Below, piece by piece: positions 3,050 to 60,196 of a DNA stretch of 64,000 bases (positions are counted from its first letter, which is position 1; the number at the start of each line of letters is the position of its first letter). The DNA lies in contig CAZSCV010000001.1 in NCBI GenBank assembly GCA_964605525.1, positions 18,424 to 82,423 on the forward strand, given 5' to 3'. Below the pieces are notes generated by a model. The model did no database searches and was not told the origin of the DNA. It saw only the letters and a program-made list of their open reading frames with translations. The translations under genes were made by a program, and so were the position numbers. The DNA comes from an uncultured Bdellovibrionales bacterium (GTDB taxonomy: Bacteria; Patescibacteriota; Minisyncoccia; Moranbacterales; UBA9337).

Positions 3050-3066
3050 ATTTCTTTAATTTTTAA

Positions 3067-4385: not shown

Positions 4386-5135
4386 TTATTTTTCAAGGCT
4401 TTTTCCCTTTTCCCACGCCAATTCGAAAAGCGGTCTCATCGAGCGCACCAGCTCATCAGATTCGATGACCACGATAAAAGGATTTTCTTCCAATGAAGTA
4501 ATTGCCAGTTTGTTGTCATAAATCGTAAAATCCATATGCGAATCTTTGAGCTCCGGAAGAATTTTAACTCTTTGGTTAACCTGAATAAATTTTTTCGCCA
4601 ATTCAATCTCATACGGACTATCCGAAATCAAATGACGGAAACCTGATTCGATGATTCCTTTTTGAGCTTTTTTTATCCATTCGGCAATTTTTCCCGAAAA
4701 TCGGTCCTCAATCCTTTGATAAGAAGAAATGAAAAAAGCGTCTTTCGCATTATTCATTTCTCCGTCCCAAATGCGAAGTATCCCTTCTTCGGTATCATAA
4801 TACCTGATTTTCGGTTTCTTACCGCTTTTATTTCCCAATGTCCGCAAAATCGGCAACATTTCGGAAAAATTCCGAGTGATTCCCTTTAACTGCACCAAAA
4901 TAACCGAGGGATCAGTGGCTTGATAAGTATTGATTTTTCGCTCCGGAAGTTCGCTCACATATCCCCGCTTGATCAATCCCTCCAAAAGCACATAAATTAT
5001 CGGGCGTTTCAGTCCGGAAATTTTGGCAATCTCCGTCACATTTCCCCGCCCCAATTCAAGCAAAGCCAAATACACCCGCGCCTCCTTGCCGGTAAATCCC
5101 GATTCTTCAAGTAATTTTATTAAATCTAAGTCCAT
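4386..5135 (-). CDS. TrmB-like winged-helix transcriptional regulator, paralog 1 of 7
   Basis: N-terminal wHTH GKEARVYLALLELGRGNVTEIAKISGLKRPIIYVLLEGLIKRGYV plus the conserved C-terminal block shared by all seven paralogs (...IVVIESDELVRSMRPLFELAWEK). Sits directly upstream of yebC-ruvC on the same strand. Confidence 0.7.
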   Translation of the reverse strand: MDLDLIKLLEESGFTGKEARVYLALLELGRGNVTEIAKISGLKRPIIYVLLEGLIKRGYVSELPERKINTYQATDPSVILVQLKGITRNFSEMLPILRTLGNKSGKKPKIRYYDTEEGILRIWDGEMNNAKDAFFISSYQRIEDRFSGKIAEWIKKAQKGIIESGFRHLISDSPYEIELAKKFIQVNQRVKILPELKDSHMDFTIYDNKLAITSLEENPFIVVIESDELVRSMRPLFELAWEKGKSLEK

Positions 5136-5169: not shown

Positions 5170-5377
5170 ATAGTCAACATATCCACTCAATAGTTTAACA
5201 ATTATTTCTATTTTTGTCAATATTTTTGATAAATAATCATTTAAAATCCATAATTTCAGCCAATTTGTTGGATTTATTTATATTTTACGATTGACATTTT
5301 ATCATAAAAATACTATTATCATCTATTCTAGCAATGGAAAGCTGTTTAAAAATTCAATAAATAAAAGGAGAAAATCA

Positions 5378-5833
5378 ATGAAAGCTATCGCACGCTGGCT
5401 AAAAGAGTTTTTTATGGAATATATCTTGCTATTTATTTTGATGATACTGACCATATTTCTTTTCGTTGGGATCTTGTTTCATTTTAATCCGGCACTTCCA
5501 AAAGAAGAAATAATCAAAAAACAACTTACCTGCTATCAAGGAAGGGGTTACTTTTTGGAAAAATTTCTAGATAACGAGATTTTTATTATTCGCACGAAAC
5601 CAATGCCAATTCCAGAACTGGGACTTGATTTTTCTTTGGCAGAAAGAACAAGCGATGGAATGTTGTTTAATGTTTTAATTCCTGTCGGGAGAAATTTGGA
5701 GCCAAAAGATGAGGTACTTTTATTTCAATTCCAAAGCAAAAAAACCGTCTATAGCCAATTTAATGAATTTTTAATCGCAATACCTAAAAAGAATAACGAG
5801 GTGAAAAATCATGATCTGCCGAAATTGCAATAA
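5378..5833 (+). CDS. small membrane protein
   Basis: AAAGGAG RBS 7 nt before ATG at 5378 (MKAIARWLKEFFMEYILLFILMILTIFLFVGILF...). One N-terminal TM helix. ORF-track start at 5291 lacks an RBS. Confidence 0.5.
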   Translation: MKAIARWLKEFFMEYILLFILMILTIFLFVGILFHFNPALPKEEIIKKQLTCYQGRGYFLEKFLDNEIFIIRTKPMPIPELGLDFSLAERTSDGMLFNVLIPVGRNLEPKDEVLLFQFQSKKTVYSQFNEFLIAIPKKNNEVKNHDLPKLQ

Positions 5834-6314
5834 TCCGATTGATAATGACAGCCTGTTCTGCAAACATTGCGGAGCTATGCAAAAAGAAAAATGCCCGGAA
5901 TGCGGGGAAATGGAACTCATCGGCCACCCGGTATGTGAAACCCTTCTCAAAAAAATACGAAGAGAAAAATGGAAATTTATTTCTGACCATACCGAAAAAT
6001 TTCCTAGTTCTGATTCTGGATTGGCTACATTTTTAGCATTTCTAATTGCAGTCCAGGTAGTAATTGCAATTATTGCCGGAATAATTTTGATTCTTTACTT
6101 TTTGGGGTGGGTAAAGGATTTCATCTTTCCGTACGCATTGTGGGCCACGATATTTTTCGGAATAGAAAGTTGGTTATCCTATAAAGCAGCCATGCGATAC
6201 CTAGAGGGTAATGAAAAAAAGATGACTGAGGATAGAATAAAAACAGAGGATAAATTCCTCGCCGAAAACCCCGAATACGCCGAGATTCTTAAAAAGGCAG
6301 AGGAGAAAAAATAA
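5811..6314 (+). CDS. zinc-ribbon membrane protein
   Basis: N-terminal CxxC...CxxC...CPECG...C zinc-ribbon (MICRNCNNPIDNDSLFCKHCGAMQKEKCPECGEMELIGHPVC). Central TM helix (LATFLAFLIAVQVVIAIIAGIILILYFLGW). Overlaps upstream gene by 23 nt, suggesting translational coupling. Confidence 0.5.
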   Translation: MICRNCNNPIDNDSLFCKHCGAMQKEKCPECGEMELIGHPVCETLLKKIRREKWKFISDHTEKFPSSDSGLATFLAFLIAVQVVIAIIAGIILILYFLGWVKDFIFPYALWATIFFGIESWLSYKAAMRYLEGNEKKMTEDRIKTEDKFLAENPEYAEILKKAEEKK

Positions 6315-18237: not shown

Positions 18238-19644
18238 TTAGTTAAAACTGAAAATTTTATTCTTTAAGATTTTTATATCCTCTTCTAATTTTTCATCTTC
18301 TTTTATTTGCCTGCTTATTTTCTTAAATGCATGCAGTGCCGTTGTGTGGTCCCTTCCTCCAAAAATCTCTCCGATGCCAGGATACGACGCATTTAATTCA
18401 GTTCGAATCAAATACATAGCTATTTGCCTGGGAACAGCTACCCTTTTTTTTCTTCCCTTATTTGCAAGTTCTTTTTCTTCGACTCCATAAAATTCTGCAA
18501 TTACTTTAATAATATCAGCATGATTAATTCCTTTCTTTTTTCTGCTGGCGATAATATCAGACAAAACTTCCTTAACGTAAACCATCGAAGGAGTTTTTTT
18601 ATTCAAATCGCAACTGGCTATTACTCTATTTAATGCTCCCTCCAATTCTCGAATATTGTTTTTTATATTTTCTGCAATAAACCTTACTACATCCTCCTCA
18701 AGGAAGAAATTTTTTTCAGCTGATTTTGCCCGTAAAATCGCCATTCTTGTTTCCAAATCCGGACTGCAAACATCCACAATCATCCCTCCCTCAAACCGGC
18801 TTCGCAAGCGATCCTCGAGAACTTGAATTTCCCGGGGAGGTCTGTCGCTACTAATTACAATTTGCTTATTAAGTTGATATAAAAAATTGAAAATATGGAA
18901 AAAAATATCCTGCGTTTTTTCTTTTCCAGAAATAAATTGAATATCATCGATTATCAACAAGCTTATTTTTTGATATTTCTCCTTAAATTGGTCAATTTTT
19001 TGATTTTTAATCGAATCTACCAATTCCGTAGTAAATCTTTCCGAAGAAATATAAATAATATTTTTTTCTGGATTTTTTTGAATAACCTCATTGCCGATTG
19101 CTTGCAAAAGATGGGTTTTCCCTAGTCCGACACCTCCATAAATAAATAATGGATTATACGTATTTCCCAGTTCTTGAGAAACAGCATAACATGCCGCCCT
19201 GGCTAATTCATTATTTTCTCCGACAATGAAATTTTCAAAGGTATATCTGGGATTTATTTGATAAAAAGCTTGCTTTTGCTGGGCTACTCTATATGTATTT
19301 TCTGCGTTATTCAAATCTACTGTATTATTCGTTCGAATGCCGGAAGATTTTTTTATCATATCAATACTCTTTCCGGACATATTTTTTTCTTGCGGATTAT
19401 AAATCATACAGCTGAGCTCCCTGACATCCTCCTGAAAATTACGAATAGCCTTAACTATATTGGCATTAAATTTGTTTTCCAACCATTCCTTGGCAAATCC
19501 ATTCGGCACGCCAACAACAACCTTACCGCTTTCATTAGAAAGAATGACGGTATCCTTAAACCAAGTAATAAATTGCGCTCTTGAAATAGAAAGCTCTATT
19601 TCTCCCAATACAGCCTGCCAAAGTTCTTCGTTGCTCATTGCCAT
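18238..19644 (-). CDS. dnaA: chromosomal replication initiator DnaA
   Basis: Walker A GGVGLGKTHLLQAIGNEV, AAA+ core, and C-terminal DNA-binding domain IAEFYGVEEKELANKGRKKRVAVPRQIAMYLIRTELNASYPGIGEIFGGRDHTTALHAFKKI. Confidence 0.95.
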   Translation of the reverse strand: MAMSNEELWQAVLGEIELSISRAQFITWFKDTVILSNESGKVVVGVPNGFAKEWLENKFNANIVKAIRNFQEDVRELSCMIYNPQEKNMSGKSIDMIKKSSGIRTNNTVDLNNAENTYRVAQQKQAFYQINPRYTFENFIVGENNELARAACYAVSQELGNTYNPLFIYGGVGLGKTHLLQAIGNEVIQKNPEKNIIYISSERFTTELVDSIKNQKIDQFKEKYQKISLLIIDDIQFISGKEKTQDIFFHIFNFLYQLNKQIVISSDRPPREIQVLEDRLRSRFEGGMIVDVCSPDLETRMAILRAKSAEKNFFLEEDVVRFIAENIKNNIRELEGALNRVIASCDLNKKTPSMVYVKEVLSDIIASRKKKGINHADIIKVIAEFYGVEEKELANKGRKKRVAVPRQIAMYLIRTELNASYPGIGEIFGGRDHTTALHAFKKISRQIKEDEKLEEDIKILKNKIFSFN

Positions 19645-21915: not shown

Positions 21916-23334
21916 ATGCTCGCCAGAAAAATAGCTTATAATGTCGCTTTCAATGCGACTACGAAAGTACTTTCCACGATCTTGGCACTTGTTGGAATCG
22001 GTTTCATCACTCGCTATCTGGGGCAAGAAGGATTCGGGGAATACGCCACCGCTTTGGCGTTTTTTTCCTTTTTTGGAGCATTGGCGGATTTGGGACTTTA
22101 CTCCGTCGCTACCCGCGAAATTTCACGCGAAGGCGCTAACGAAGATGAAATTATCGGAAATGTTTTTTCTTTGCGCATTTTTACCGCGATGTTGGTTTTT
22201 ATTATTTCCCCCTTGATAATATACTTCTTCCCATATTCGCCGGAAGTAAAGAAAGCGATTCTGCTGACCGCCGCCGCTTTTGTTTTTTCTTCCGGATACA
22301 TGGTTCTTAATGGAATTTTCCAGAAAAATCTGACAATGTACCGGGTCGCAATTGTCGAACTGGTTGGAAAAGTCTTGCAAACAGGAATAATAATCATAGC
22401 AGTTGTAAGAGATTGGGGATTTTTAGCTATAATGTCTTCTCTTTTGGCATATATGGCGTTTAATTTCTTTTTTGTATTATTGCTTAGCCGGAAATATGTC
22501 AAATTTCATTTGCATTTTAATTTTCCTTATTGGAAAAAATTCCTTAAAATGTCCGCCCCAATGGGAATTTCCGTCATCATCACCTTTCTTTATTTCAAAA
22601 TGGACACAATTTTACTTTCAGTGTTAAAAGGCAGTGCAGAAGTGGGAATATACAACGCCGCTTACAAAATCCTTGAAAACATCACTTTTTTTCCTGCAAT
22701 GATTGTCGGTCTCACTCTTCCGCTCACTTCAAAATTTATTTTCACAGACAAAAAGAAATTCGCAGAAATTTCCAACAAAACCGCCAAAGTATTTTTTCTA
22801 CTGATCATTCCTTTGTTTGTCGCGGTTATGTTTTTGGCCGAAGATATTATGCTCCTTATCGGTGGCGCTGAATTTGCCGTTTCCGCCAATACTTTGCGTA
22901 TTTTGATAATCGCTCTTGTGTTTATTTTCTTTGGAAACTTCTTCAACAATATTCTTTTGGCGGGCAACTTACAAAAGAAAATGATGGTTGCCTTGGGATT
23001 TTGCGCCGCTTTCAATATCGGCGCCAACTTTGTGATGATTCCGCTTTATTCCTATACTGGAGCCGCCATCACTTCGGCGCTGACTGAAATGCTGGTCATT
23101 GCCATAACCTCCTTTTTAGTCTTTAAATACTTAGATTACGTTCCTAAAATTGAAAACTGGCTACGCTTTGTTTTTTCCGGCTTGATGATGGCAATATTTT
23201 TGTTTTTATTCCGCGGTCAAAATTTCTTCCTCCTCGCCCTCGGCTCCAGCGCCATCTATTTTCTCTTCCTCTGGCTAACCCGAGCCATCACCGCCACCGA
23301 AATCAAAAGCATTATGCAAAAAGACGTTGCGTGA
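21916..23334 (+). CDS. polysaccharide/oligosaccharide flippase (Wzx/MurJ-like MOP superfamily)
   Basis: About 470 aa, 12-14 TM. MLARKIAYNVAFNATTKVLSTILALVGIGFITRYLGQEGFGEYATALAFFSFFGALADLGL is typical of the PST/Wzx family. Start set at second M (21916). Confidence 0.6.
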   Translation: MLARKIAYNVAFNATTKVLSTILALVGIGFITRYLGQEGFGEYATALAFFSFFGALADLGLYSVATREISREGANEDEIIGNVFSLRIFTAMLVFIISPLIIYFFPYSPEVKKAILLTAAAFVFSSGYMVLNGIFQKNLTMYRVAIVELVGKVLQTGIIIIAVVRDWGFLAIMSSLLAYMAFNFFFVLLLSRKYVKFHLHFNFPYWKKFLKMSAPMGISVIITFLYFKMDTILLSVLKGSAEVGIYNAAYKILENITFFPAMIVGLTLPLTSKFIFTDKKKFAEISNKTAKVFFLLIIPLFVAVMFLAEDIMLLIGGAEFAVSANTLRILIIALVFIFFGNFFNNILLAGNLQKKMMVALGFCAAFNIGANFVMIPLYSYTGAAITSALTEMLVIAITSFLVFKYLDYVPKIENWLRFVFSGLMMAIFLFLFRGQNFFLLALGSSAIYFLFLWLTRAITATEIKSIMQKDVA

Positions 23335-23348
23335 AAATTTTACAATTA

Positions 23349-23388
23349 AAAAAAGTCCGAGAGAGTTTTCTCTCGGACTTTTATTTTT
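23349..23388. terminator. bidirectional rho-independent terminator between convergent genes
   Basis: AAAAA GTCCGAGAGAG ttt CTCTCGGAC TTTTATTTTT. Perfect 11-bp stem flanked by A- and T-runs. Confidence 0.6.
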
Positions 23389-23391
23389 CAA

Positions 23392-24519
23392 TTACCACAA
23401 CCCAGCTCGCTTCCGATAGGCCTCAATCTCCGCAAGAGTTCTTTCAATGCCGCCAAAGAGTTCAGGAAAAAGAAATTCATACTGCCCGGCATGAAGCTGG
23501 AGAAAATCAGAAATAACTGGGAGCGGCAAATTCTCCAAAGAACGAAATAAAAAATTTGCCAATCCCCTTTTACTTTTCGAAAGATCTTTCCATTCCACAT
23601 CAGTAAAAACCCTGTGCAATATTCGCAAAGCCTCGCTCTTTCTATTGCTCATTGTGCCAACTCTTTTTAGCAGTTTTAAAAGAGAAATATACAAAATATC
23701 ATCCGCTTCTTCTATAGCCGCTATTAATCGTTCTAATCCAACGACACTAATAAACAAAGAGCGATCCCATTCCCTGAGATTAACTACGTAACTTTCTTTG
23801 TTTTGAATTGTGATTATTGGTATCATATTCAATCTTTCGATTGTTCCAATATCCAGCCACTGACCATTTGGCAATAAATACAAAAATTCATTACGATATC
23901 CCCAAGGAACAACAATATTGTACCAGTTAGATGTGAGATAATTATCCCTCGTATCAACCCCTTCGAGCTGATTTTCCATAAGTCCACATTTCGAAAAGGT
24001 ATCGCGCAAACAATCTTCGTCTATATAGGCATCGACGAGAACTTTCCTCTCCTGTTTTTCTTTTTTTCGACTCATTTCGATGTTGCTAGCCGTATTTCCG
24101 GAAAAATAAGTGACCTTGATTCTTGATTGATCTAAGCCGATTGCGATAAAAAAATCCAGCATAGTCCTTACAATCCCTTCATAACAAGTCCTTGCGCTAT
24201 CAACACCAATGACCTTTCCGCCCGCAATTGTCGCAAGAGTAAAAAGTCCCAAGTGCTGTCCGTTGCCATTAACATCACGGCAATAAAAATTCTCAAAATC
24301 TCGCATCCTAATCGCCGGCTGAATTTTTTGGAAATTATCGCCAATTGCAATATCGACAAAATTTCCGTATTTTTCAAACCATTGCATTTCATCTAAGCAA
24401 TAACAGAACTGCCCTGGATATAATGGCGATGAAATAGGTGTGTTTTTCAAAATTGAAATACCACTATTCTTATGAATAATCTTGATTTTCTCCATTACTA
24501 TTTTAGCGGTTTTCTCCAT
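23392..24519 (-). CDS. stand-alone class II aminoacyl-tRNA-synthetase-like catalytic core (AlaRS-like signatures); function unknown
   Basis: 375 aa. Class II motif-2-like WGYRNEFLYLLPNGQWLDIGTIERL. Motif-3-like FISVVGLERLIAAIEE. FEKYGNF...GDNFQK resembles the AlaRS FEMLGNFSFGDYFK block. No anticodon-binding, editing or C-Ala domains. Confidence 0.4.
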   Translation of the reverse strand: MEKTAKIVMEKIKIIHKNSGISILKNTPISSPLYPGQFCYCLDEMQWFEKYGNFVDIAIGDNFQKIQPAIRMRDFENFYCRDVNGNGQHLGLFTLATIAGGKVIGVDSARTCYEGIVRTMLDFFIAIGLDQSRIKVTYFSGNTASNIEMSRKKEKQERKVLVDAYIDEDCLRDTFSKCGLMENQLEGVDTRDNYLTSNWYNIVVPWGYRNEFLYLLPNGQWLDIGTIERLNMIPIITIQNKESYVVNLREWDRSLFISVVGLERLIAAIEEADDILYISLLKLLKRVGTMSNRKSEALRILHRVFTDVEWKDLSKSKRGLANFLFRSLENLPLPVISDFLQLHAGQYEFLFPELFGGIERTLAEIEAYRKRAGLW

Positions 24520-24715
24520 TGAGATTCTCCTGTTAATTTATGGGTTTCAAGTTTAACTATTATGTTTTCAAAGATCAACAAGCAAGCATATCATTTCCAA
24601 TAGAATAAACAATAAAATTGCCCGTTTTTATTATTTTGTTGACTTTTTGCTTAATATAAAGTATAATTAAGCTATAAAAAAACGGCGGTTTTGCCGTCAT
24701 TAATAAAAATATCTT

Positions 24716-25453
24716 ATGAGTATCCTTAATAAACTTCAAAAACTCAGCCTAAGCGAAATCCAGTCCAAAGCGTATATTGCCCTTTTACAGATTGGCGAGG
24801 GCAGCGCTTTGCAAGTTTCCCGCAATGCAAACCTCCCAAAATCAACGGTTTTTGAAACGCTTAAATCCCTTAACGGATTAAATCTAATTTCTAAGAGGTC
24901 ACAAGGGAACAAAAATATTTTCTTTGTTTCAGATCCACGCATTATCTTGGATAACATAAAAGAACAAGCACGAACAGCTGAAGACATCCTTCCGGAACTT
25001 CGCGGACTATACAAAGCTTTTAACAAAAATGCGCAAGTACGTTTTTTTGAAGGACCAAAAGCTATTGAAATAATTATAAACGAAACATTGATGGAAGCAA
25101 AAGAATTAAAATTAATAGGATCTATTTCTGATACAGTTGAATTCTACCCTAAATACTTTCCCCGATTCTCAATACAACGCGTTAAACGCAAAATACCTCT
25201 TCGTATACTCACAAACGACTCAGAGACAGCACAAGAAAATATTCTTCTAGATAAAAGAAAATTGCGCACAACCAAAATAATCCAAAATAAAGAATTTTCC
25301 TCAATGATTTGGATGTGGTCTGGTAAAATCGGCATAATTGCCACGCGAGGAAAACAATTTGCGATGGTTATCGATGAACCCGGAATATTCGGCATTCAAA
25401 CCGCAATGTTTGATTTAATTTGGGATTCGCTTCCGGAAAGTAAACAATATTGA
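24716..25453 (+). CDS. TrmB-like winged-helix transcriptional regulator, paralog 2 of 7
   Basis: SEIQSKAYIALLQIGEGSALQVSRNANLPKSTVFETLKSLNGLNLISK wHTH. Conserved C-terminal block ...FAMVIDEPGIFGIQTAMFDLIWDSLPE. Promoter TTGACT-N17-TATAAT at about 24628-24656. Small GC hairpin ACGGCGgttttGCCGT in the leader. Confidence 0.7.
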   Translation: MSILNKLQKLSLSEIQSKAYIALLQIGEGSALQVSRNANLPKSTVFETLKSLNGLNLISKRSQGNKNIFFVSDPRIILDNIKEQARTAEDILPELRGLYKAFNKNAQVRFFEGPKAIEIIINETLMEAKELKLIGSISDTVEFYPKYFPRFSIQRVKRKIPLRILTNDSETAQENILLDKRKLRTTKIIQNKEFSSMIWMWSGKIGIIATRGKQFAMVIDEPGIFGIQTAMFDLIWDSLPESKQY

Positions 25454-25479
25454 TTTAATATTTTCCAATTCTTCCAAAA

Positions 25480-26250
25480 TTACTTTTGCGACAGTGTCCA
25501 AAGTTTTTTGAACATTTCACGCATATTGAAAGCTAGCGCATGATCATGCAGTTCTACTAGATAAAATGGGTGCTGCCGCGTGTTTATCATTATTAAATAA
25601 TCCCCAGCTACCCATACGCTTGAAGTGAAATTGAGATCATCCGCAAAACGCACATCCCTTTTATGCTTGAAATTTTTTTTAGCTTGCTTTTTCTCTATTT
25701 CTGACACATTGGTAAAAATTTGCCCGCGAAGATTCTTAGCATACGGCGTCTCCCATGAAGCATTTATCCATTTTTCGTAATTTTCCACGAAGCTATGATC
25801 CTGAAATCCCCACCAAACTCCATCAGACCCGACAACTGCCTTTGACCACTTGATCAAATTATCAAAAAGAAATTTTTCCAATCCATCCTCTTCAATAAAA
25901 ACAATTTTAGGAACAGGATATAGTTTTTCCGCGGTAATCAGATTCAGCTCCCCGACAGCCTTTTTTATCAAAACCTCTTTGTCTTTGATTTCCCGACGCA
26001 TCTGATCCAAGATTTTTTCTAAATTTTTAGGCGGCAAAGGGACATAATACAACGATTTGGAACTTATATCTTCAGCTATGATGCCCTTTGACAACAAATT
26101 TCCCGCAACGCTATACAAAGTCGCCCTGTTTAATTTCGTAATTTTCGCCAAAACAGCAGGCTTTACCTTGCCGCTTTTCAATAAGGCTAGGTAAACTTTG
26201 ATTTCTTTGTCATTCAAGCCTAGATTTTTCAAAATTTGATGGATACTCAT
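25480..26250 (-). CDS. TrmB-like winged-helix transcriptional regulator, paralog 3 of 7
   Basis: DKEIKVYLALLKSGKVKPAVLAKITKLNRATLYSVAGNLLSKGII wHTH. Conserved C-terminal block. Promoter TTGACA-N17-TATAAT ends 6 nt before ATG (near-leaderless). Surrounded by a 30-bp near-palindrome centred on CAATTG. Confidence 0.7.
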   Translation of the reverse strand: MSIHQILKNLGLNDKEIKVYLALLKSGKVKPAVLAKITKLNRATLYSVAGNLLSKGIIAEDISSKSLYYVPLPPKNLEKILDQMRREIKDKEVLIKKAVGELNLITAEKLYPVPKIVFIEEDGLEKFLFDNLIKWSKAVVGSDGVWWGFQDHSFVENYEKWINASWETPYAKNLRGQIFTNVSEIEKKQAKKNFKHKRDVRFADDLNFTSSVWVAGDYLIMINTRQHPFYLVELHDHALAFNMREMFKKLWTLSQK

Positions 26251-26417
26251 ATGTCCATTATACTCTGTTGTTGAAATATTGTCAACAATTGTTCGACAAA
26301 TATTGACAATATTTTTATTTTGGACTATATTGCCCTATTGTGATGGAATTGTCCACCATAATACCTATTCTTTAAAAATCAAATAATTCGAAACAATCAT
26401 TAAATCAGGAGGAAATT

Positions 26418-26840
26418 ATGACTTGGCAAATTTACCTATTTCTAACAATTTTGTTCTGGGGCGGATACAATATTTCCTATAGGTTCACAACAAATAAAAT
26501 AGATTTTGCGCTTTTATTATTCATAGTTGGAATAGTACATGCATTAACAGCTATCCCTTGGGCAGTGTCTGGTTACATGAAAAAAGGATTCATACTTCAT
26601 TCCGATAGCGGCATTAGTATAGCCATTCTCATGGGAGTTTTTATGACTTTAGGTGGAATAGCTTTTACTCGCGCCTTTAGTTTGGGAATCCCAGTTTCTG
26701 TGGCTACGCCAGGATACAGCGTCGGAGTTATACTTCTGAGCGCCATTACTGGGATTGTTTTAGGTGAATCACTTACACTGCAATGGGTTGTAGGAATGAT
26801 TATGGGCATAGTGTCGGTTTATCTTTTAACAATAAAATAG
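26418..26840 (+). CDS. EamA-like small DMT-family membrane protein (4 TM)
   Basis: CAGGAGG RBS. 140 aa, four hydrophobic helices, MTWQIYLFLTILFWGGYNISYRF is an EamA-like N-terminus. Confidence 0.5.
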   Translation: MTWQIYLFLTILFWGGYNISYRFTTNKIDFALLLFIVGIVHALTAIPWAVSGYMKKGFILHSDSGISIAILMGVFMTLGGIAFTRAFSLGIPVSVATPGYSVGVILLSAITGIVLGESLTLQWVVGMIMGIVSVYLLTIK

Positions 26841-26851
26841 GGGGGAAAGTT

Positions 26852-27421
26852 ATGAAAAAAATTATTTTATTGGCAATCTTGTACATTAGTCTTACGACAA
26901 ATATTGTCATGGCAACTACTCCGATTTCAGGAGATGTAGAAGTGCGCGAAATCGTCACTAGCAATAAATCTTCCCAGCAATTGAATTTCTATGGATCTAG
27001 CTTGGTTGATGGGAACATCCTTGGCATCTCCGGAGTTGCCAGCGTCAGCAAGGATTATTCCGAAGCATACATCGGACCGATTTGGATGCCCGCACCATGG
27101 ATTTCCCTCGAAGCCGGCGTCGGACTTCAACAGATTGAAAATGGATCACCATTGAGATATGCCTTGGCAGGCTGGATCGGAAATTCGATCGGATCCCTCT
27201 ACTACATCCGGGAAATGGGCGCCGACAGTGATGACTGGTGGGAAAAGTTGCGGATATTTGCCAATCTCGGAGAATTTGCCAAAATTGGCGTTGTTTACGA
27301 GAAGGGATATGATTGGGGACCGATAATCGAAATTCCAATCCCATCATCCCGATTCAAAATTCGGGCAACCTGGCACCCCGAACCAAATATCGCACACTTC
27401 AGTTTGTTTTTTAACTTCTAA
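26852..27421 (+). CDS. secreted protein with signal peptide and aromatic C-terminus (possible beta-barrel)
   Basis: GGGGGGAAAG RBS. MKKIILLAILYISLTTNIVMA signal peptide. Alternating hydrophobic pattern. C-terminus ...HFSLFFNF ends in Phe, an OMP-like signature. Terminator-like hairpin AAGCGG...CCGCTTTTT at about 27452-27480. Confidence 0.5.
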   Translation: MKKIILLAILYISLTTNIVMATTPISGDVEVREIVTSNKSSQQLNFYGSSLVDGNILGISGVASVSKDYSEAYIGPIWMPAPWISLEAGVGLQQIENGSPLRYALAGWIGNSIGSLYYIREMGADSDDWWEKLRIFANLGEFAKIGVVYEKGYDWGPIIEIPIPSSRFKIRATWHPEPNIAHFSLFFNF

Positions 27422-27571
27422 TTTAGGAGATTTTATATCCAGATCTAACGAAAGCGGCACCAAATGGCACCGCTTTTTATATTTATCAAGTAATAAAAAA
27501 ACAGGAGGCCAGCGCTATGCGCAAAGCCTCCTATGCAACTTGTCTTCACGAAATCAAGGAATTATCTCCTT

Positions 27572-27760
27572 TTATAAGGGGCCGCTATAGAACCCCTTAT
27601 CACGATAATCCCTATCATTATCTCGGGAAAGCTCTTTGATAATTCTATCGATTGCTCCTTTTTCTTCTCCTGTAAAACCTTTCATTTCCTCAAGTTCTTC
27701 TCCACGTTCAATTGATGAATGATCACACATTTGTCTACCACAAATTTTACAACATTTCAT
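27572..27760 (-). CDS. small Cys-rich acidic protein (62 aa)
   Basis: GGGAGG RBS immediately upstream of ATG. MKCCKICGRQMCDHSSIERGEELEEMKGFTGEEKG... has 5 Cys and 1 His in the first 14 residues. Own terminator (AGGAGGC...GCCTCCT plus T-run on minus strand, about 27505-27535). Lies 72 nt downstream of TrmB paralog 4. Confidence 0.4.
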   Translation of the reverse strand: MKCCKICGRQMCDHSSIERGEELEEMKGFTGEEKGAIDRIIKELSRDNDRDYRDKGFYSGPL

Positions 27761-27832
27761 CTTTCTACCTCCCTTGTTAAATTAAAATCTATTACCACCC
27801 TCACACACCTCTTAAATAGATTTCTGACTTCC

Positions 27833-28612
27833 CTACTTTTCCAACATCTTCCACATCATCTCAAAATATTGCCGGTGGGTTTCGGCGAAGTCCCTACTTT
27901 CTATTACGACGATAATGTTTTCCTCCTTGGTTGAGAACATTGCAATCTTGTTTCCGAAAATTATTTCCGTCGAAGGAAATTGGAACTCTTTCGGAGCAAG
28001 GCGCGTTTCTCGGTTGTGCTTCAAATCTATTTTTTGAAGCTTTTGCGCCGACTGCGAATCTTCATTGATAGCTCGGCTGGAAAAACCCAGACGAACTTTC
28101 TTTTTTTGGATCTCTTCCAAAAAACTTTCACCCGCAAATTCAATGAATGTTTCAATACGAGCCAAACTCAAAAAGTTTTTGTCCTTGGAAGAAAAAATAT
28201 CATTCCAAACTTTTTTGAACCCTTTTTCTCCCTCATAAACCCTAATCTGGGGTTTAAAGGAATCGCCTAGATAGATGGCATTGATCGTCGGTAGGATGTC
28301 CTCCACGATTTTTTTGGATTTTTGCAATTCATGATGTTTTTCATCTAGAAGCGCATACAGCTTGCCAGTCGGATTTTCAGAAATCAACCTCCTTTTCTTA
28401 CCTTTCTTTATTTCCGTGACAAATCCTTTAATTTTCAACTTTTCAACAATATCATAAACCGTCCCGCGGCTTAATTCAGTGCCTTCAGAAATTGAAGGAA
28501 TAGAAGCTTCGCTATTTTCCATAACTGACAGATATATCAAAGATTCCTTATCAGTTAATCCTAATTGTAAAAGACCGCTCAGAACCTCCTTTTTTTGAAT
28601 TTTGCTTAACAT
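27833..28612 (-). CDS. TrmB-like winged-helix transcriptional regulator, paralog 4 of 7
   Basis: LTDKESLIYLSVMENSEASIPSISEGTELSRGTVYDIVEKLKIKGFV wHTH. Conserved C-terminal block ...IIVVIESRDFAETHRQYFEMMWKMLEK. Promoter TTGATA-N17-TATATT ends 2 nt before ATG (leaderless). Confidence 0.7.
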   Translation of the reverse strand: MLSKIQKKEVLSGLLQLGLTDKESLIYLSVMENSEASIPSISEGTELSRGTVYDIVEKLKIKGFVTEIKKGKKRRLISENPTGKLYALLDEKHHELQKSKKIVEDILPTINAIYLGDSFKPQIRVYEGEKGFKKVWNDIFSSKDKNFLSLARIETFIEFAGESFLEEIQKKKVRLGFSSRAINEDSQSAQKLQKIDLKHNRETRLAPKEFQFPSTEIIFGNKIAMFSTKEENIIVVIESRDFAETHRQYFEMMWKMLEK

Positions 28613-28705
28613 AATAATATATACTTAATTTTTATTATTATCAATACTATCCGTCATTTTAAATTATCTAATGAATATATAACCCTTATTTAAGGCAAAA
28701 TAATG

Positions 28706-28740
28706 CAAAATAAAAAATGACGGGATGTATCGTCATTTTA
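28706..28740 (-). terminator. rho-independent terminator of the AAA-ATPase gene
   Basis: AAAATGACG ggatgtat CGTCATTTT. Perfect 9-bp stem with T-run on the minus strand. Confidence 0.5.
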
Positions 28741-28773
28741 ACAAAAAATGTCTCTTATGTCAATAACATAGGC

Positions 28774-28795
28774 CTAATTATACCTAAATTATACC
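28774..28795. repeat. direct repeat A flanking AAA-ATPase cassette 1 (CTAATTATACCTAAATTATACC)
   Basis: Near-identical 21-22-mer recurs at 30095-30115 (CTAATTAGCCTAAATTATACC) in the same orientation. The two bracket the ATPase gene plus its operator/promoter. Confidence 0.45.
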
Positions 28796-28813
28796 CATTT
28801 TGTACCTATTTTT

Positions 28814-29998
28814 TTATTTCACCTTTTCCAATTCATTGATTTTATCCAAATCAAAAATATCCCTGATTAATATTTTATTTTTTGCCTTAATATTATTGAA
28901 TAAATCCTCCTGTTTCCGGGGCATTTCTGAATTATATTTCACTTCAATCAAGGTTTTATTTTCCGTTAAAAAATCAATTTCATTGCCATCTTGGTATACA
29001 TATCGCGGATTAAGCTTCTTTATTTTCAGATAAACATAATTTTCAAGCAAACTGCCTTTATCGCGAAAGCCCGTAAAATATACGCGCATGCCTAAGTCGG
29101 CAGCATAAATCTTTTTGGCCGACAACAAGCGCTCATTGGTTTTGCCGAAACGCGGCACCAAAAAAATCAAATAAGAATCAGCAAACATCTGCAGATATCG
29201 CTTGGCTGAATCCGGTGAAATATCCAAAATTTTAGCAATCTTATTGATACTGCAAACCTTGCCCGCCCTTTCCATTAGCAACAGAAAAAAATCCTTGAGA
29301 ATTTGCACATCTTTTACGCCATAAAAAGCGGCGATGTCTTTTTGGATTATGTCATCCACCAATTCTTTCAAATACTCGATGTTGCCGGTCAAAACATATT
29401 CCGGCATTCCACCGACCTGCATAAAATCTTCGAAATAACTTTTCAGCAAATGTTTATCAGTTTTTTTAATCACAACTTTTTTAAATTGCAAATATTCTTC
29501 AAAATCCAACGGCAAAACTTCAACTATCATATTGCGCCCTGTCAAAAATGCTTTCCTGCTTTTCAGGAGTGAAGCACTGGATGATGAAGCATAAACTTTG
29601 GCATTTTGCTGGTCATAGATGTTTTTAAGTTGCAACTCAAAATCTTTTTGATACGTCACCTCATCCAAAAACAAAAATATTTTTTCAGAAAAATTCAATC
29701 TATGGATTTTTCTATACTCCTCGATAATCTCCAAAATACTCTTGCCTGTCAAAAGATAATCATCCAGGCTGACATAGAAAATCAATTTTGGATCAACTTT
29801 CCTTTGATCTATAAGATGTCGGATAATCTGCTTCATTAAAGTAGTCTTGCCCACGCGCCGCAAACCAGTCAAAATAGTCACCTGCCTACTTGCCAGATTA
29901 TCCTTCAAAACTTCCAAAATGCGCGGTCTTTCAATGATGTTTTCCGCCTTAAATTCAGTTTCCCACCAAGGATTATAGCGATATAATATTTGTTCCAT
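28814..29998 (-). CDS. AAA+ ATPase (AAA_14 + DUF4143-type, family recalled), copy 1
   Basis: Walker A TGLRRVGKTTLMKQ. Walker B IFLFLDEV. C-terminal KYN...D[FL] block resembles the DUF4143 family. Start set at ATG 29998 (MEQILYRYNPWW) because the ORF-track start at 30055 is a TTG codon lying inside the promoter. Confidence 0.65.
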   Translation of the reverse strand: MEQILYRYNPWWETEFKAENIIERPRILEVLKDNLASRQVTILTGLRRVGKTTLMKQIIRHLIDQRKVDPKLIFYVSLDDYLLTGKSILEIIEEYRKIHRLNFSEKIFLFLDEVTYQKDFELQLKNIYDQQNAKVYASSSSASLLKSRKAFLTGRNMIVEVLPLDFEEYLQFKKVVIKKTDKHLLKSYFEDFMQVGGMPEYVLTGNIEYLKELVDDIIQKDIAAFYGVKDVQILKDFFLLLMERAGKVCSINKIAKILDISPDSAKRYLQMFADSYLIFLVPRFGKTNERLLSAKKIYAADLGMRVYFTGFRDKGSLLENYVYLKIKKLNPRYVYQDGNEIDFLTENKTLIEVKYNSEMPRKQEDLFNNIKAKNKILIRDIFDLDKINELEKVK

Positions 29999-30027
29999 AA
30001 AACTATTTTTACTATTTACAAATACAT

Positions 30028-30079
30028 TATACGATACTATCGTATAATTTGTCAAATATCTATACGATAGTATCGTATA
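30028..30079 (-). promoter_or_regulatory. promoter with twin 19-bp palindromic operators (TATACGATA-c/g-TATCGTATA) upstream of AAA-ATPase 1
   Basis: Sense strand: TATACGATACTATCGTATA-gatat-TTGACA-aat-TATACGATAGTATCGTATAAT. One palindrome abuts the -35. The other fills the 18-nt spacer and supplies the TATAAT -10. Palindromes at 30028-30046 and 30061-30079. Confidence 0.5.
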
Positions 30080-30094
30080 TCGTTATCAAGAAGT

Positions 30095-30115
30095 CTAATT
30101 AGCCTAAATTATACC
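30095..30115. repeat. direct repeat B flanking AAA-ATPase cassette 1 (CTAATTAGCCTAAATTATACC)
   Basis: Pairs with 28774-28795 and is 1.3 kb away in the same orientation. Confidence 0.45.
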
Positions 30116-30274
30116 TAAGCTCGATTTTCTTATTATTCGTAAAAATTTTTATACTTTCCCTGCCCCTTTCCAAGCCAATTCAAAAATGGCTTTTTGAGCA
30201 TTGGCGATTTCAGTTACAATTCAATGATTTTCAAAATAGCTGGCTTTTTACTCACTTTTTGCTAGAATTGGAAT

Positions 30275-31138
30275 ATGGAAAAATATCCCAAGATATTTGT
30301 TGTTGTGCTCAATTACAATGGAAAACGAACGCTAATGGAATGCTTGCGGTCGGTTTTTGACTGCGATTATTCCAATTTTGAAGTTGTTTTGGTGGATAAT
30401 AATTCAACTGACGGATCTTTTGAAACCGCCAAAACGAAATATCCAAAAATTCACTTCATTAAAAACAGTAAAAACATCGGCTTTGGAGCGGGAAATAATA
30501 TTGGAATCCGTTTTTCCTTAGAAAAAATGGCAGATTTCGTGTTCTTACTTAACAATGACGCTTACTTGGAAAAATCAACCCTATCCATATTAACAGAAGA
30601 AGCACAGAAAAATCCCTCTTCAGGCATTTTGAATCCACTCATCTTAAATAAAAGCGACGATAGCATTTGGTTTTCCGGAGGAAACATTGACTGGCTTAGG
30701 ATGCGCGCATACCATCTTCACGCACCACAGAAAGCGCTCGACACGTTCAAAACCGCATATGCCACCGGATGTGCCATGTTGGTAAAAAAAGACGTGTACA
30801 AGAAAATAGGACTTTTCGATGAAAATTTCTTTTTATATTATGAAGATGCTGATTTTTCCGTCCGCGCCAAAAGAAAAGGGTTTACTATATTAGTGGTTCC
30901 ACGATCCACAGTTTGGCACGATGAGCAAAGTACAAATAGCCCGCAAAAATTATACTGGCTAGTTTTATCTGGAATCTTATTTTTTAAAAAAAATATGCCC
31001 GCTTGTCTGCGTCCCTGGTTTTATTTTTATCTCTGGATAAGGAAAATGAAAAATATACTGGATTTGCACGAGAATAAAAACAATCAAAGCGCTCAAAAAA
31101 TAGCCCGGGCGTTTCTTGACGCAAAAAAATACCACTAA
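30275..31138 (+). CDS. family 2 glycosyltransferase
   Basis: IFVVVLNYNGKRTLMECLRSVFDCDYSNFEVVLVDNNSTDGS plus DxD-like LNNDAY are classical GT2 (GT-A) signatures. Confidence 0.8.
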   Translation: MEKYPKIFVVVLNYNGKRTLMECLRSVFDCDYSNFEVVLVDNNSTDGSFETAKTKYPKIHFIKNSKNIGFGAGNNIGIRFSLEKMADFVFLLNNDAYLEKSTLSILTEEAQKNPSSGILNPLILNKSDDSIWFSGGNIDWLRMRAYHLHAPQKALDTFKTAYATGCAMLVKKDVYKKIGLFDENFFLYYEDADFSVRAKRKGFTILVVPRSTVWHDEQSTNSPQKLYWLVLSGILFFKKNMPACLRPWFYFYLWIRKMKNILDLHENKNNQSAQKIARAFLDAKKYH

Positions 31139-46865: not shown

Positions 46866-47789
46866 ATGTTTAGTGTTCAAAAAATGAAAAAAATAGAAAA
46901 TTTGACAGTTGAATTTCTTGAGCATCTGGAGATTGAATTGGGAAGATCGCAAAAAACCATTGAAAACTATCATCACTACGTGAAAAGATTTTTACAGTGG
47001 GCGAAAATAAGCGCGCCGGATCAAATAACCCTGGATCTGGTTAGAAAATATAGATTATATCTGAATCGCTTGGAGGATGAAAAGGGTAATTTATTAAAAA
47101 AAACCACCCAAAATTACCATATCATAGCCTTGCGAAATTTTCTCAAATATCTGGCTAAAAGAGATATATCCTCGCTTTCGGCGGAAAAATTGGAAGTGGG
47201 TAGGAATCCGCAAAAAGAAGTGGAATTTCTGAATGGAGATGAAGTGGGGCGCATCTTGCAATGTGTTAATGGAGAGGATTTGAAATCTTTGCGCGACCGG
47301 TCAATTCTGGAGCTTTTGTTTTCTGCCGGGCTTCGAGTTTCAGAGCTTACTGGTATTAATAGAGATCAAATTAACCTAAAAAATCAAGAGTTTAGTGTGC
47401 GTGGAAAGGGTGATAAGGTGCGAGTGGTTTTTATTTCTGATACTGCCAAGCAAATTCTGGAAAGATATATAAGCAAAAGGGTTGATATTGACCAGGCGCT
47501 GTTTGTAAGGATTATGAAAAATCCGCAAAATAAGGAAGATTTGCGGTTGACCCCGCGCAGTATTCAGCGAATAGTCAAATATTATGCACATAAGGCGGGT
47601 ATCGTGAAAGATGTTCATCCACACACACTCAGGCACAGCTTCGCGACTGATTTACTCAGCAACGGCGCGGATATTCGCTCAGTTCAGGCAATGCTCGGAC
47701 ATTCTTCAATCACCACCACACAGATTTATACACATGTTACTAACAGACAATTAAAAGATATCCACAAGAAGTTTCATCGAAAAAAGTGA
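46866..47789 (+). CDS. xerC: tyrosine site-specific recombinase, XerC/XerD-like
   Basis: N-terminal core-binding domain (LEHLEIELGRSQKTIENYHHYVKRF). C-terminal catalytic RHSFATDLLSNGADIRSVQAMLGHSSITTTQIYTHV with the R...H-x-x-R...Y tetrad. Likely true start MKKIENL at 46884. Confidence 0.75.
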   Translation: MFSVQKMKKIENLTVEFLEHLEIELGRSQKTIENYHHYVKRFLQWAKISAPDQITLDLVRKYRLYLNRLEDEKGNLLKKTTQNYHIIALRNFLKYLAKRDISSLSAEKLEVGRNPQKEVEFLNGDEVGRILQCVNGEDLKSLRDRSILELLFSAGLRVSELTGINRDQINLKNQEFSVRGKGDKVRVVFISDTAKQILERYISKRVDIDQALFVRIMKNPQNKEDLRLTPRSIQRIVKYYAHKAGIVKDVHPHTLRHSFATDLLSNGADIRSVQAMLGHSSITTTQIYTHVTNRQLKDIHKKFHRKK

Positions 47790-51024: not shown

Positions 51025-53187
51025 ATGAACAAACTACTTGAACAATTGAATGTAGCGCAGAGGGAGGCGGTGGAGGCTACTGAGGGGCCAGTTTTAGTGA
51101 TTGCTGGGGCTGGATCGGGAAAGACTCGCGTGCTTACTCACCGAGTCGCTTATTTAATAACAGAAAAAGGCGTAAAACCGCAAAATATTCTAGCTGTAAC
51201 ATTTACCAATAAAGCCGCGCAAGAAATGAAAGAGCGAATAAATAAATTGTTAGCGGATGGGTTTAATGCTTCACGTTCCACTTCGCACGTTAATGTTGGT
51301 ACTTTTCATTCAATTTGTGTAAAAATATTGCGCAGAGAGATTGATAAACTTGGTTATCAAAAGTCCTTTAATATTTTTGATGACCAGGATCAGAAAGTTT
51401 TAATGAAAAAAGTTGTCAAGGAATTGGAGATTAATACCGAACAATTCAACCCCAAAACTTTTTTAGCCGTTATTAGTAAGGCAAAAAATGAACTTCGGGA
51501 TGAGTATGCTTTTGAGGTTGGAATCGGAGGGTATTACGAAGAGATTGTGGCAAAAGTGTACAAAAAATATCAGAAGGAATTGAGGGAAATTAACGCTTTG
51601 GATTTTGACGACCTAATTCGATTGACTATTGAGCTTTTTCAGAAATTCCCCGAGATATTGGAGAAATATCAAAATCTTTTCAAATATATTTTAGTGGATG
51701 AATACCAGGATACTAATCATGCGCAATATACTTTAGTGCGATTGTTGGCTCAAAAACATCAAAATCTTTGTGTCGTTGGCGATGATTGGCAGTCAATTTA
51801 TGGCTGGAGGCAGGCAGATATCCGCAATATTTTGAGTTTCGAGAAAGATTATCCGCAAGCGAAATTAATAACATTGGAGCAAAACTATCGTTCCACGCAG
51901 AATATATTAGACGCTGCTTACGGCGTTATTTCTCAGAATGTAAACAGAAAAGACAAAAAAGTGTGGACGGACAACAAGGAAGGTCATCAAATTGTTTCAT
52001 TTGAAGCGCAAGATGAGCGCGAAGAGGCTGAATTTGTGGCACGCACAATAAGAGAAGAGCAGATGAATGAAGGAGCGCCGGGTAAATTTTCAGATTTTGC
52101 TGTGTTATACCGAACAAACGCACAATCGCGAGCCTTAGAAGAGGTTTTCTTGCGAGAAGATATTCCCTATCGAATTATCGGCGGATTAAAATTCTATCAA
52201 CGAAAGGAAATCAAAGATGTCATTGCTTATCTACATCTTATGCAGAATGGATTAGACTATGTATCCCTGGAGCGGGTTATTAATGAGCCAAAGAGAGGAA
52301 TCGGAAAAGCCACGTTAGGAAAATGGATTACTTTTTCGAAAAAAGTAGGAAAGAATCTCATCTTGACAGGATTAGGTATGGATAATGAATCCGGATTGAA
52401 TAAGGGAAAAGTCGATGAAATTAAAAAGTTCTGTGATTTTATCGTTCGGATGCAGGATTTAAGGGAAAAAATTGAGTTGGCGGATCTTATTGAAAAGGTT
52501 TTTTATGAAAGCGGTTATGAAAAAGTATTGTCGAGCATGGGAGCAGATGGCGAAATGCGATTGGAAAATGTAAGGGAGCTTCTTAGTGTGGCGGGAAAAT
52601 ATGCCGGAGTAAAAGCAAATGAATCCCTTGATTTGTTCTTGGAGGAAGTGGCACTAGCTAGTGATACTGACAATATTGAAAAAAGAGAAAATTCAGTGCA
52701 TTTAATGACGCTTCATAGTGCTAAGGGTCTTGAATTTCCTTCGGTTTTCATTGTGGGGCTTGAGGAGGGCATTCTCCCGCATTCACGAAGTATGCTTAGT
52801 GAGAGTGAAATGGAAGAAGAAAGAAGATTGATGTATGTGGGTATTACACGAGCAATGAAAAAAGTTTATCTGTTGTTTACTCAAATGAGAATGATTTTTG
52901 GCTCAACACAAGCCAATCCCCCTTCGCGATTTCTGGAAGATATTCCCCGGCATCTTATATTACCGGAAAGTACGAAGTGCGAAAAACAAAAAGAAAAACG
53001 ATTGGATAAGCACACAGCACATTCTGCATCTCAACTTTCGCGCTTTAGGGATGGACAAAGGATTATTCATGCTAACTTTGGAGAAGGAATAATTATTTCT
53101 ATTACTAATGATATAGCAACAATTGCCTTCCCTCACAAAGGAATTAAACGAATATCTCTTTCAATAGCGCCAATAAAAGAAGCGTAA
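51025..53187 (+). CDS. uvrD: ATP-dependent DNA helicase UvrD/PcrA family
   Basis: Q-motif/Walker A LNVAQREAVEATEGPVLVIAGAGSGKTRVLTHR. Motifs II (ILVDEYQDTN), III, V and VI (VGITRAMKKVYL) in order. 720 aa. Confidence 0.85.
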   Translation: MNKLLEQLNVAQREAVEATEGPVLVIAGAGSGKTRVLTHRVAYLITEKGVKPQNILAVTFTNKAAQEMKERINKLLADGFNASRSTSHVNVGTFHSICVKILRREIDKLGYQKSFNIFDDQDQKVLMKKVVKELEINTEQFNPKTFLAVISKAKNELRDEYAFEVGIGGYYEEIVAKVYKKYQKELREINALDFDDLIRLTIELFQKFPEILEKYQNLFKYILVDEYQDTNHAQYTLVRLLAQKHQNLCVVGDDWQSIYGWRQADIRNILSFEKDYPQAKLITLEQNYRSTQNILDAAYGVISQNVNRKDKKVWTDNKEGHQIVSFEAQDEREEAEFVARTIREEQMNEGAPGKFSDFAVLYRTNAQSRALEEVFLREDIPYRIIGGLKFYQRKEIKDVIAYLHLMQNGLDYVSLERVINEPKRGIGKATLGKWITFSKKVGKNLILTGLGMDNESGLNKGKVDEIKKFCDFIVRMQDLREKIELADLIEKVFYESGYEKVLSSMGADGEMRLENVRELLSVAGKYAGVKANESLDLFLEEVALASDTDNIEKRENSVHLMTLHSAKGLEFPSVFIVGLEEGILPHSRSMLSESEMEEERRLMYVGITRAMKKVYLLFTQMRMIFGSTQANPPSRFLEDIPRHLILPESTKCEKQKEKRLDKHTAHSASQLSRFRDGQRIIHANFGEGIIISITNDIATIAFPHKGIKRISLSIAPIKEA

Positions 53188-56321: not shown

Positions 56322-56390
56322 AGCCAGGAACCGTGATGGGTTGCTGGCTTTTGAAATAAAAAAGGCGGGGAACTGCGATGAGTTTCCGCC
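56322..56390 (+). terminator. tandem terminator hairpins after the CCA gene; second one (56354-56380) belongs to the GATGAG-loop family
   Basis: AGCCAGGAACC...GGTTGCTGGCTTTTG, then AAAAAGGCGGGGAACTGCGATGAGTTTCCGCCTTGTTTTTTT. Confidence 0.5.
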
Positions 56391-56494
56391 TTGTTTTTTT
56401 GCCTACAATAAGCTAAAAATATTTGATTTGGACCAAAAAGAGCAGAATTAACAAAAAGTCTTGACTTTTTTCCAGTTTAGTGTAAAATGGTAAT

Positions 56495-57625: not shown

Positions 57626-57644
57626 AAAACAGCGCTTAGGCAAA

Positions 57645-60176: not shown

Positions 60177-60196
60177 ATTCCCGTTTTCGCGGGAAT
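60177..60196 (+). promoter_or_regulatory. GC-rich 5-prime-leader hairpin of TrmB paralog 7 (ATTCCCGttttcgCGGGAAT, followed by GACA)
   Basis: 6-bp stem 9 nt upstream of ATG 60206. Preceded by promoter TTGACA-N16-TATGAT (about 60100-60127). Homologous to the paralog 1 leader element. Confidence 0.45.

Follow-up and report, generated by a model that had tools for sequence, protein, structure and literature searches.

In restriction-modification (R-M) systems with controllers of the C.PvuII and C.AhdI type, the unit's own product binds two adjacent palindromic operators in its promoter, and expression comes as a burst that is then shut off. These controllers are separate small proteins with a helix-turn-helix (HTH) domain of the Xre type, and one of the two operators activates. 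DnaA autoregulates through sites immediately upstream of its own gene. The gene described here may be controlled in a related way. It lies in a stretch of 64,000 nucleotides from an uncultured bacterium of the Moranbacterales (assembly GCA_964605525.1, contig CAZSCV010000001.1, positions 18,424 to 82,423), called the window below, and encodes an AAA+ ATPase of the PDC-S01 type. From sequence comparison, and with a probability of roughly 0.65, we propose that the gene and its promoter form a self-contained, horizontally mobile module, and that the ATPase represses its own synthesis by binding through its own winged helix to a pair of palindromes in that promoter.

PDC-S01 is reported to rank fourth in frequency among prokaryotic defence candidates, with about 39,000 instances; it is a candidate only, since its anti-phage validation is pending (PMC12988326). 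DUF4143, one of the domains present in this ATPase, has been classed as PD-(D/E)XK with unknown function (PMC3424549). Literature searches found no paper with the operator sequence, no description of the regulation or DNA specificity of the PDC-S01 family, and no description of a regulatory architecture such as the one reported here; DUF4143 was mentioned in only three.

The ATPase gene occupies positions 28814-29998 on the minus strand, beginning with an ATG at 29998, and encodes 394 amino acids (aa). A longer open reading frame (ORF) with a TTG start, reaching to 30055, was rejected: it overlaps the promoter and disagrees with the homologs. The PADLOC profile for PDC-S01 (PDLC04787) matches the product over its full length (3.4e-71). 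Pfam places AAA_14 at residues 38-170 (8.4e-30) and then DUF4143 at residues 219-356 (5e-22), the domain order of the PDC-S01/AAA_14-DUF4143 family (COG1373). Both the P-loop motifs and the PD-(D/E)xK residues are intact, and Walker A (GLRRxGKT), Walker B (DE, 112-113), E319, D342 and E352-x-K354 are invariant or nearly so. An identical gene is present in GCA_007376605.1.

The AlphaFold2 model of the protein has a predicted local distance difference test score (pLDDT) of 83.8. It suggests an AAA+ domain (about 25-200), a helical lid, a winged helix (231-299) and a PD-(D/E)xK nuclease-like domain (300-360). Of these the winged helix is the best conserved, with a mean identity of 71%. Conservation reaches 95% or more in 42% of its columns, whereas 21-31% of the columns do so in the ATPase, lid and nuclease domains. 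The near-invariant residues of the winged helix are S250, N252, K253, D263, R267, R283, G285, K286, N288 and K296. A sequence search of the PDB with the ATPase returned no solved relative. The top fold match found by Foldseek was 2qby_A, an Orc1/Cdc6 protein on origin DNA (E 1e-7, template modelling (TM) score 0.35, 15% identity).

The promoter of the gene (30026-30055, minus strand) agrees with the sigma-70 consensus at 12 of 12 positions, with TTGACA at 30055-30050, an 18-nt spacer and TATAAT at 30031-30026. Two 19-bp palindromes, taken here as putative operators, are fitted around these boxes. The distal one, TATACGATAGTATCGTATA (30061-30079), stops 5 nt upstream of the -35. The proximal one, TATACGATACTATCGTATA, which can be written TATACGATA-N-TATCGTATA (30028-30046), begins 3 nt past the -35 and fills the spacer, and its last 4 nt (TATA) are the first 4 of the -10. 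The two are exact reverse complements of each other, including the central base. Their starts are 33 bp apart, or three helical turns, so that both palindromes lie on one face of the DNA. They are the sole matches in the window, even when 3 mismatches are allowed (expected 0.04). The possibility that they act as structured RNA was rejected, since they are positioned upstream of the inferred transcription start and a search of Rfam over 27300-30400 gave only sub-threshold noise.

The same arrangement can be followed in other organisms. A scan of 185,579 species genomes for homologs gave 80 loci at 49-97% identity from more than ten phyla, and 79 of these could be scored. They come from Moranbacteria, Paceibacterota, Bacteroidota, Ignavibacteria, Desulfobacterota, Spirochaetota, Gammaproteobacteria, Acidobacteriota, Calditrichota and others. 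A match to TATACGAT-N3-ATCGTATA was counted as an operator-like site if it lay in the 150 nt upstream of the gene and departed from the motif at 4 or fewer of 16 positions. All 79 loci have at least one such site, 50 have at least two, and some have as many as three. Of 57 pairs of neighbouring sites, 52 are separated by 33 bp. The density of sites is 11.5 per kb upstream of the gene and 0.078 per kb over the remainder of the loci.

When the threshold is relaxed, 65 of the 79 loci show a 33-bp pair, so that two phased palindromes overlap the core promoter of the putative regulator's own gene there as in the window. The -10 of the proximal member matches the consensus at 5 or more of 6 positions in 57 of these 65. 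Since the start codon stands 5-8 nt past the -10 in 40 of the 65, most members from outside the candidate phyla radiation (CPR) are probably leaderless. Homologs with 78-86% identity sit between unrelated housekeeping genes, namely murE and ilvA, a C39 peptidase gene and dnaG, or recO and an aminotransferase gene. In these differing contexts all of them retain the promoter and the palindromes, and no neighbouring gene is conserved across the related loci.

A first-pass annotation of this DNA had described twin palindromes, one abutting the -35 and one supplying the -10, as an operator-type arrangement. The coordinates bear out the layout, and the interpretation gains from the consensus promoter and from the finding that the palindromes are a fixed attribute of the gene family. 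The same annotation had stated that no repressor is adjacent. Here it went astray, as the ATPase, which always accompanies the operators, carries a winged helix of its own.

Since the neighbouring genes vary, only the ATPase is a constant candidate for the protein that binds the palindromes. Autorepression is proposed because the operators are inherited together with this gene and with no other conserved gene, and because the winged helix is conserved. As far as can be judged from sequences, the ATPase itself is the probable repressor, and the operator reading extends to a cross-phylum subfamily.

The mechanism may be pictured as follows. Each palindrome would be bound by one dimer of the ATPase through its winged helices, and pairs of dimers, or a higher ATPase oligomer, could extend across the two palindromes on one DNA face. 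The bound protein would occlude RNA polymerase at a promoter that presumably needs no activator, resulting in tight negative autoregulation. After entry into a naive cell, transcription from the consensus promoter would continue until the protein had reached a sufficient level, by the same logic as for R-M controller proteins. Release from the operators may be linked with the ATPase cycle or with a trigger of the nuclease.

Several observations weigh against autorepression by the winged helix. Searches of PDB sequences and of the literature found no characterised member of the PDC-S01 family. In the Desulfobacterota clade the proximal operator is half-degenerate and only the half that bears the -10 is kept, so part of the operator conservation could be promoter conservation. 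One locus in the Melioribacteraceae, L077, has two extra twin operators with 33-bp spacing and a weak -35 (5170-5290 and 5868-5985), inside repeats of about 110 nt downstream of the ATPase gene. Neither copy is followed by an ATPase gene, so such sites can occur without autoregulation. As protein similarity was the basis of selection, the related loci represent one subfamily, and a second ATPase paralog in the window (56495-57625) lacks these operators. Finally, the link between an operator variant and a winged-helix residue comes from a single locus. L066 is the only locus with variant outer operator bases (CTTACGAT..ATCGTAAG), and it has the only substitution at the otherwise invariant N252 (N252Y), a covariation that is suggestive of recognition by the winged helix. 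As a separate observation, one of the gene-less twin operators of L077 lies about 330 nt before a nucleotidyltransferase-like ORF.

Evidence for the mobility of the module can be provided by a locus that lacks it. In L110, the GT2 gene and the gene for the regulator TrmB4 are adjacent, with 275 nt between them and no ATPase. Local alignments show that the extra DNA of the window runs from about 30117 to 28769 and contains, in this order, a repeat copy (B), the operators, the gene and a second repeat copy (A). The comparison with L110 thus indicates that the GT2 gene and TrmB4 were separated by insertion of the ATPase module. Its composition gives no signal of foreign DNA, with a GC content of 0.354 in the gene and 0.363 in the window. 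The neighbours of the ATPase in the window are glycosyltransferase and TrmB genes, and there is no defence island.

Both edges of the insert carry a short direct repeat. The exact 13-mer CCTAAATTATACC occurs in the window only at 28783-28795 and 30103-30115 (expected 0.16 at one mismatch). Each copy is preceded by CTAATTA plus TA or G, which gives repeats of 21 and 22 nt that differ by one indel. These repeats are part of an element of 45-50 nt, the TAGGTATAATT element, which consists of three direct TAGGTATAA half-sites with 11-bp spacing and an inverted one that completes the palindrome TAGGTnTAATTAGACCTA.

The two copies of the element differ in their state. Copy A (TAGGTACAA-aa-TGGGTATAA-tt-TAGGTATAA-TTAGGCCTA; 28769-28808, minus strand) is intact and forms the right edge of the insert. 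It starts 5 nt past the ATPase stop, and its end is 5 nt short of the -35 in the TrmB4 promoter. Copy B (TAGGTATAATT TAGG-CTAATT AGACTTC; 30090-30117, minus strand), at the left edge of the insert relative to L110, is decayed, having lost the first half-site and 1 nt by deletion. In L051, which holds a 97%-identical ortholog, copy B has decayed further through an 11-nt deletion. An 86% homolog (L005/L010) has one intact element upstream of its operators, in a different genomic context.

In the window, the repeat motif is found only around the ATPase gene. A scan of JGI metagenomes added seven contigs with the element. There it stands upstream of two Fic genes, of two ATPases that are 27-29% identical to that of the window, and of other ORFs, so the motif is recurrent and not specific to one gene. 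In the Fic loci the promoter consists of TTGACA, 16 nt and then the first TATAAT of the element, and in L095 and L099 two copies of the element bracket TTGACA, one of them supplying the -10 of the Fic gene. In L095 and L097, the gene that comes after the element-bearing Fic and ATPase genes begins with MNESETRAEYIDPK..., which we take to resemble the N-terminus of a type I restriction R subunit. If this is correct, these element-bearing genes would be in restriction-modification or defence contexts.

The first-pass annotation had read the gene as a cassette between 21-nt direct repeats that mark site-specific insertion. The repeats at both gene ends are real, and the empty site in L110 agrees with an inserted unit, as the extra DNA begins and ends at the repeat copies. 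A role of the repeats as attachment sites of this gene is not supported, because across related genomes the 21-mer is a recurrent intergenic, promoter-like motif.

Another explanation for the repeats is that the element is an operator or promoter module, through which some other regulator acts on accessory genes, and that its two copies here, as regulatory sites or what is left of them after decay, flank the ATPase incidentally. Regular half-sites, the use of the element in Fic promoters, the closeness of copy A to the TrmB4 promoter and the decay of copy B would all suit such a role. However, no candidate regulator is linked to the element, the other TrmB4 orthologs do without it, and it occurs together with a conserved hairpin at the ends of units, which rather points to a structural or cassette role. 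We regard this explanation as possible but tentative.

This hairpin, called hairpin T, has the form AAAAAGCGGTGCC-ATTT-GGTGCCGCTTT in the window (27451-27482, minus strand). Its full form, AAAAAAG-GGCGGTGCC-ATTT-GGCGCCGCC-TTT, includes A and T tracts. Hairpin T is found only beside element-bearing units, and always in the orientation of the cargo. It is present on both sides of the ATPase unit in L005 (2280 and 3696) and of the Fic unit in L099 (404 and 1945), directly after the ATPase stop in L051 (5214), and after an ATPase paralog in L096 (5062). In L005 and L099, the hairpin, a spacer of about 30 nt and the element form a common module of about 110 nt. L106 was considered as an empty site for the module of L005 and rejected, since it lacks a 4.8-kb block rather than a single gene and has no T hairpin.

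The element and hairpin T might be the ends of an undescribed kind of cassette, without a recombinase and carrying its own promoter, that shuttles genes of the defence type, PDC-S01 ATPases and Fic proteins, among Moranbacteria-like CPR genomes. This is a speculative proposal and we consider it rather doubtful. Such cassettes would be part of a broader tendency in these genomes to carry single-gene insertions between direct repeats of 20-70 nt. The flanks are of several types: the element on both sides of the first ATPase gene of the window; hairpins on both sides of the second, of the L005 ATPase and of the L099 Fic gene; a 69-nt repeat at recQ; and a 40-nt repeat in L110. A cassette system could account for the repeat-bounded inserts, as could circular intermediates that recombine at short homologies.

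The second AAA_14/DUF4143 paralog of the window (plus strand) is 27% identical to the first. It has a promoter of the form TTGACT-17-TGTAAAAT, free of TATACGAT operators, and its ATG comes 7 nt past the -10. Near-identical terminator-like hairpins, AAAAAAGGCGGgGAACT(g)CGATGAGTTTCCGCCTT, flank it at 56347-56392 and 57634-57679. The paralog in L096 is also without the twin operator. Elsewhere in the window, a 69-nt direct repeat (91% identical; 59129-59197 and 61007-61075) duplicates the 5' end of a recQ-like gene (60992-63166). The 1.9-kb segment that it flanks contains ORFs at 59470-60048 (minus strand) and 60128-60952 (plus strand) and looks like a repeat-bounded insertion. In L110, a 40-nt repeat (93%) of the 3' end of TrmB4 (4740-4779 and 5678-5717) flanks a 938-bp insert with a 260-aa gene.

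It is unlikely that the two 21-mers are attL and attR, or a target-site duplication, left by the site-specific insertion of a single gene. The extra DNA does start and end at the two copies, in a MAFFT alignment the element faces an AT-rich part of L110 (GATAATTTTTTTGAAATAAT) that is weakly similar to it, and other single-gene inserts in these genomes are flanked by direct repeats of 40-69 nt. Against this, the element is missing upstream of TrmB4 in all five ATPase-free loci with a TrmB4 ortholog (L107, L110, L111, L113 and L114), which are relatives at 67-80% identity and not isogenic, and a target duplication was rejected on this account. Both copies lie within the inserted DNA, so no target duplication is visible. 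A single copy stands upstream of the 86% homolog in another context, and the element also precedes distant ATPase paralogs and is built into the promoters of Fic genes.

The unit also differs from the usual kinds of mobile DNA. A site-specific integrative element would be expected to bring a recombinase, but neither the unit nor the DNA next to it has one; the window contains a single tyrosine recombinase gene (46866-47789), about 17 kb away. The unit has a single ORF with no transposase domain, and its repeats are direct, about 40 nt long and present in other loci too, in contrast to an insertion sequence or transposon. It has its own consensus promoter and the element is 5' of the cargo in all instances, which does not fit an integron cassette. 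A phage origin was rejected as well. IMG/VR contains no match to the element and five exact matches to the operator; each is a lone site in a locus that contains no homolog of the gene.

The palindromes themselves could be mainly sites of recognition, cleavage or mobilisation by the nuclease, as for a homing endonuclease or a transposase, with the overlap with the promoter being secondary. The sites always accompany a gene that is clearly mobile, a long palindrome resembles the site of a rare cutter, and L077 has its two gene-less twin-site copies in repeats. Nevertheless, we consider this very unlikely. The sites occur at one end of the gene only, they keep a fixed register with the -35 and -10 (33-bp spacing with an embedded -10) in 65 of 79 loci, and the gene would lose its own promoter if they were cut; that the exact viral matches are single and have no homolog of the gene in the locus also speaks against mobilisation.

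The least probable reading, in which a separate host repressor acts in trans on the ATPase as regulated cargo, finds some support in TrmB4, the regulator 200 bp away that the first-pass annotation had pointed to, in the at least seven TrmB-family genes of the window and in the fact that repressors encoded elsewhere are common, but it can be set aside because the operators are kept across more than ten phyla with no common neighbouring gene, because the TrmB4 orthologs have a conserved palindrome of their own (ATGACG-N8-CGTCAT) that differs and is absent from the ATPase promoter (29999-30274), because L051 has both operators intact without TrmB4, and because the TrmB paralogs are only 20-37% identical to each other with no TrmB4 ortholog beside the L005 module.

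Autorepression by the ATPase, if correct, would not involve TrmB4, and the control of TrmB4 can be described separately. Its promoter has the form TTGACA-17-TGtTAAAAT and is followed by the ATGACG-N8-CGTCAT palindrome or hairpin (28714-28763, minus strand); both are ancestral and outside the insert. The hairpin, with a T-run, is conserved upstream of TrmB4 in L107, L110, L111, L113 and L114, making six TrmB4 promoters with that of the window. It probably serves TrmB4 itself as an operator, or else acts as a leader attenuator. Some 70 nt further downstream (about 28650-28665) comes a second ATGACGG, which is kept in all orthologs examined.

TrmB4 is a conserved syntenic gene with orthologs that are 67-80% identical. 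A protein annotated from 'Candidatus Berkelbacteria bacterium Athens1014_28' matches it with 100% identity. Its upstream side varies and may hold GT2, a TrmB paralog, Wzy, AbiEi/AbiEii or the ATPase. In L114, an AbiEi/AbiEii pair (2473-3748) takes the position held by the ATPase in the window, which suggests that the site upstream of TrmB4 is a hotspot for defence-type genes. L051 has probably lost TrmB4, because the gene is syntenic in other genomes; for the same reason, the idea that the TrmB4 segment is an insertion was dropped. As a counterpoint to the loss, the junction between ATPase and hairpin in L051 resembles the junctions in L005 and L096. L051 (5201-5859) also lacks a 3.9-kb block of the window (23546-27417), as seen by comparison with 23140-23546 and 27417-27484. 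The block contains two TrmB paralogs, an EamA-like gene and a 212-aa ORF, so TrmB paralogs are found in strain-variable DNA. The TrmB-family genes of the window lie at 4386, 24716, 25480, 27833, 50270 and 58360, in addition to a PaaX-like gene at 6532.

One more palindrome of the window, ATTGTTCCACGTGGAACAAT, is present in six copies between 53337 and 54222, spaced by 134-195 nt. The copies are in a stretch of about 1.6 kb without an ORF of 120 aa or more, between genes for a UvrD-like helicase (51025-53187) and a CCA-adding enzyme (54795-56294). The arms loosely resemble a DnaA box; dnaA is at 18238-19644.

If autorepression by the ATPase is correct, a large, cross-phylum subfamily of PDC-S01 would consist of sequence-specific DNA binders with a known 19-bp target and self-controlled synthesis. 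This would give an immediate and inexpensive experimental system. Since the promoter matches the sigma-70 consensus, it should work in E. coli. Such a system would also offer a readout for the signal that releases the protein, and a coupling of the ATPase cycle, DNA sensing and nuclease activation would be plausible. An autorepressed module would account for the spread of a potentially toxic nuclease gene across phyla as one plug-in unit. In addition, the insertions bounded by repeats suggest that CPR bacteria gain genes by an uncharacterised route.

Four known systems can be compared with this locus. Integron cassettes and pdif modules are similar in being single-gene units at variable positions that encode no recombinase, as are the units bounded by the element and hairpin T. 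They differ because the element is 5' of the cargo, has promoter-like boxes and lacks the imperfect hairpin architecture of attC. Moreover, the loop of hairpin T (3-4 nt) is too short for the core of a tyrosine recombinase, no IntI-like gene was seen, and the empty sites examined have neither element nor hairpin.

Orc1/Cdc6 proteins, the best fold match in the PDB, also have an AAA+ module followed by a winged helix. As with DnaA, the sites of the ATPase are repeated, phased and immediately upstream of its own gene. The TM score is 0.35 in this comparison, however, with no Cdc6 match in Pfam and no sequence match in the PDB. The ATPase also has an extra nuclease-like domain at its C-terminus, and its gene is accessory and horizontally transferred.

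The controller proteins of R-M systems are close in design, since a mobile nuclease unit is placed behind two adjacent palindromic operators; self-binding would be a further likeness. No Xre-type HTH is found among the Pfam hits of the ATPase, and no methyltransferase or Xre-type regulator among the neighbouring genes scanned. Unlike in those systems, the putative DNA-binding domain is inside the ATPase-nuclease itself, both sites are placed to repress and there is no methyltransferase partner. Finally, the closest likeness is to PDC-S01, with which the module shares the domain order, the intact motifs and a patchy distribution as a single-gene unit. The twin operator is what sets it apart, as a trait of the subfamily to which the ATPase of the window belongs.

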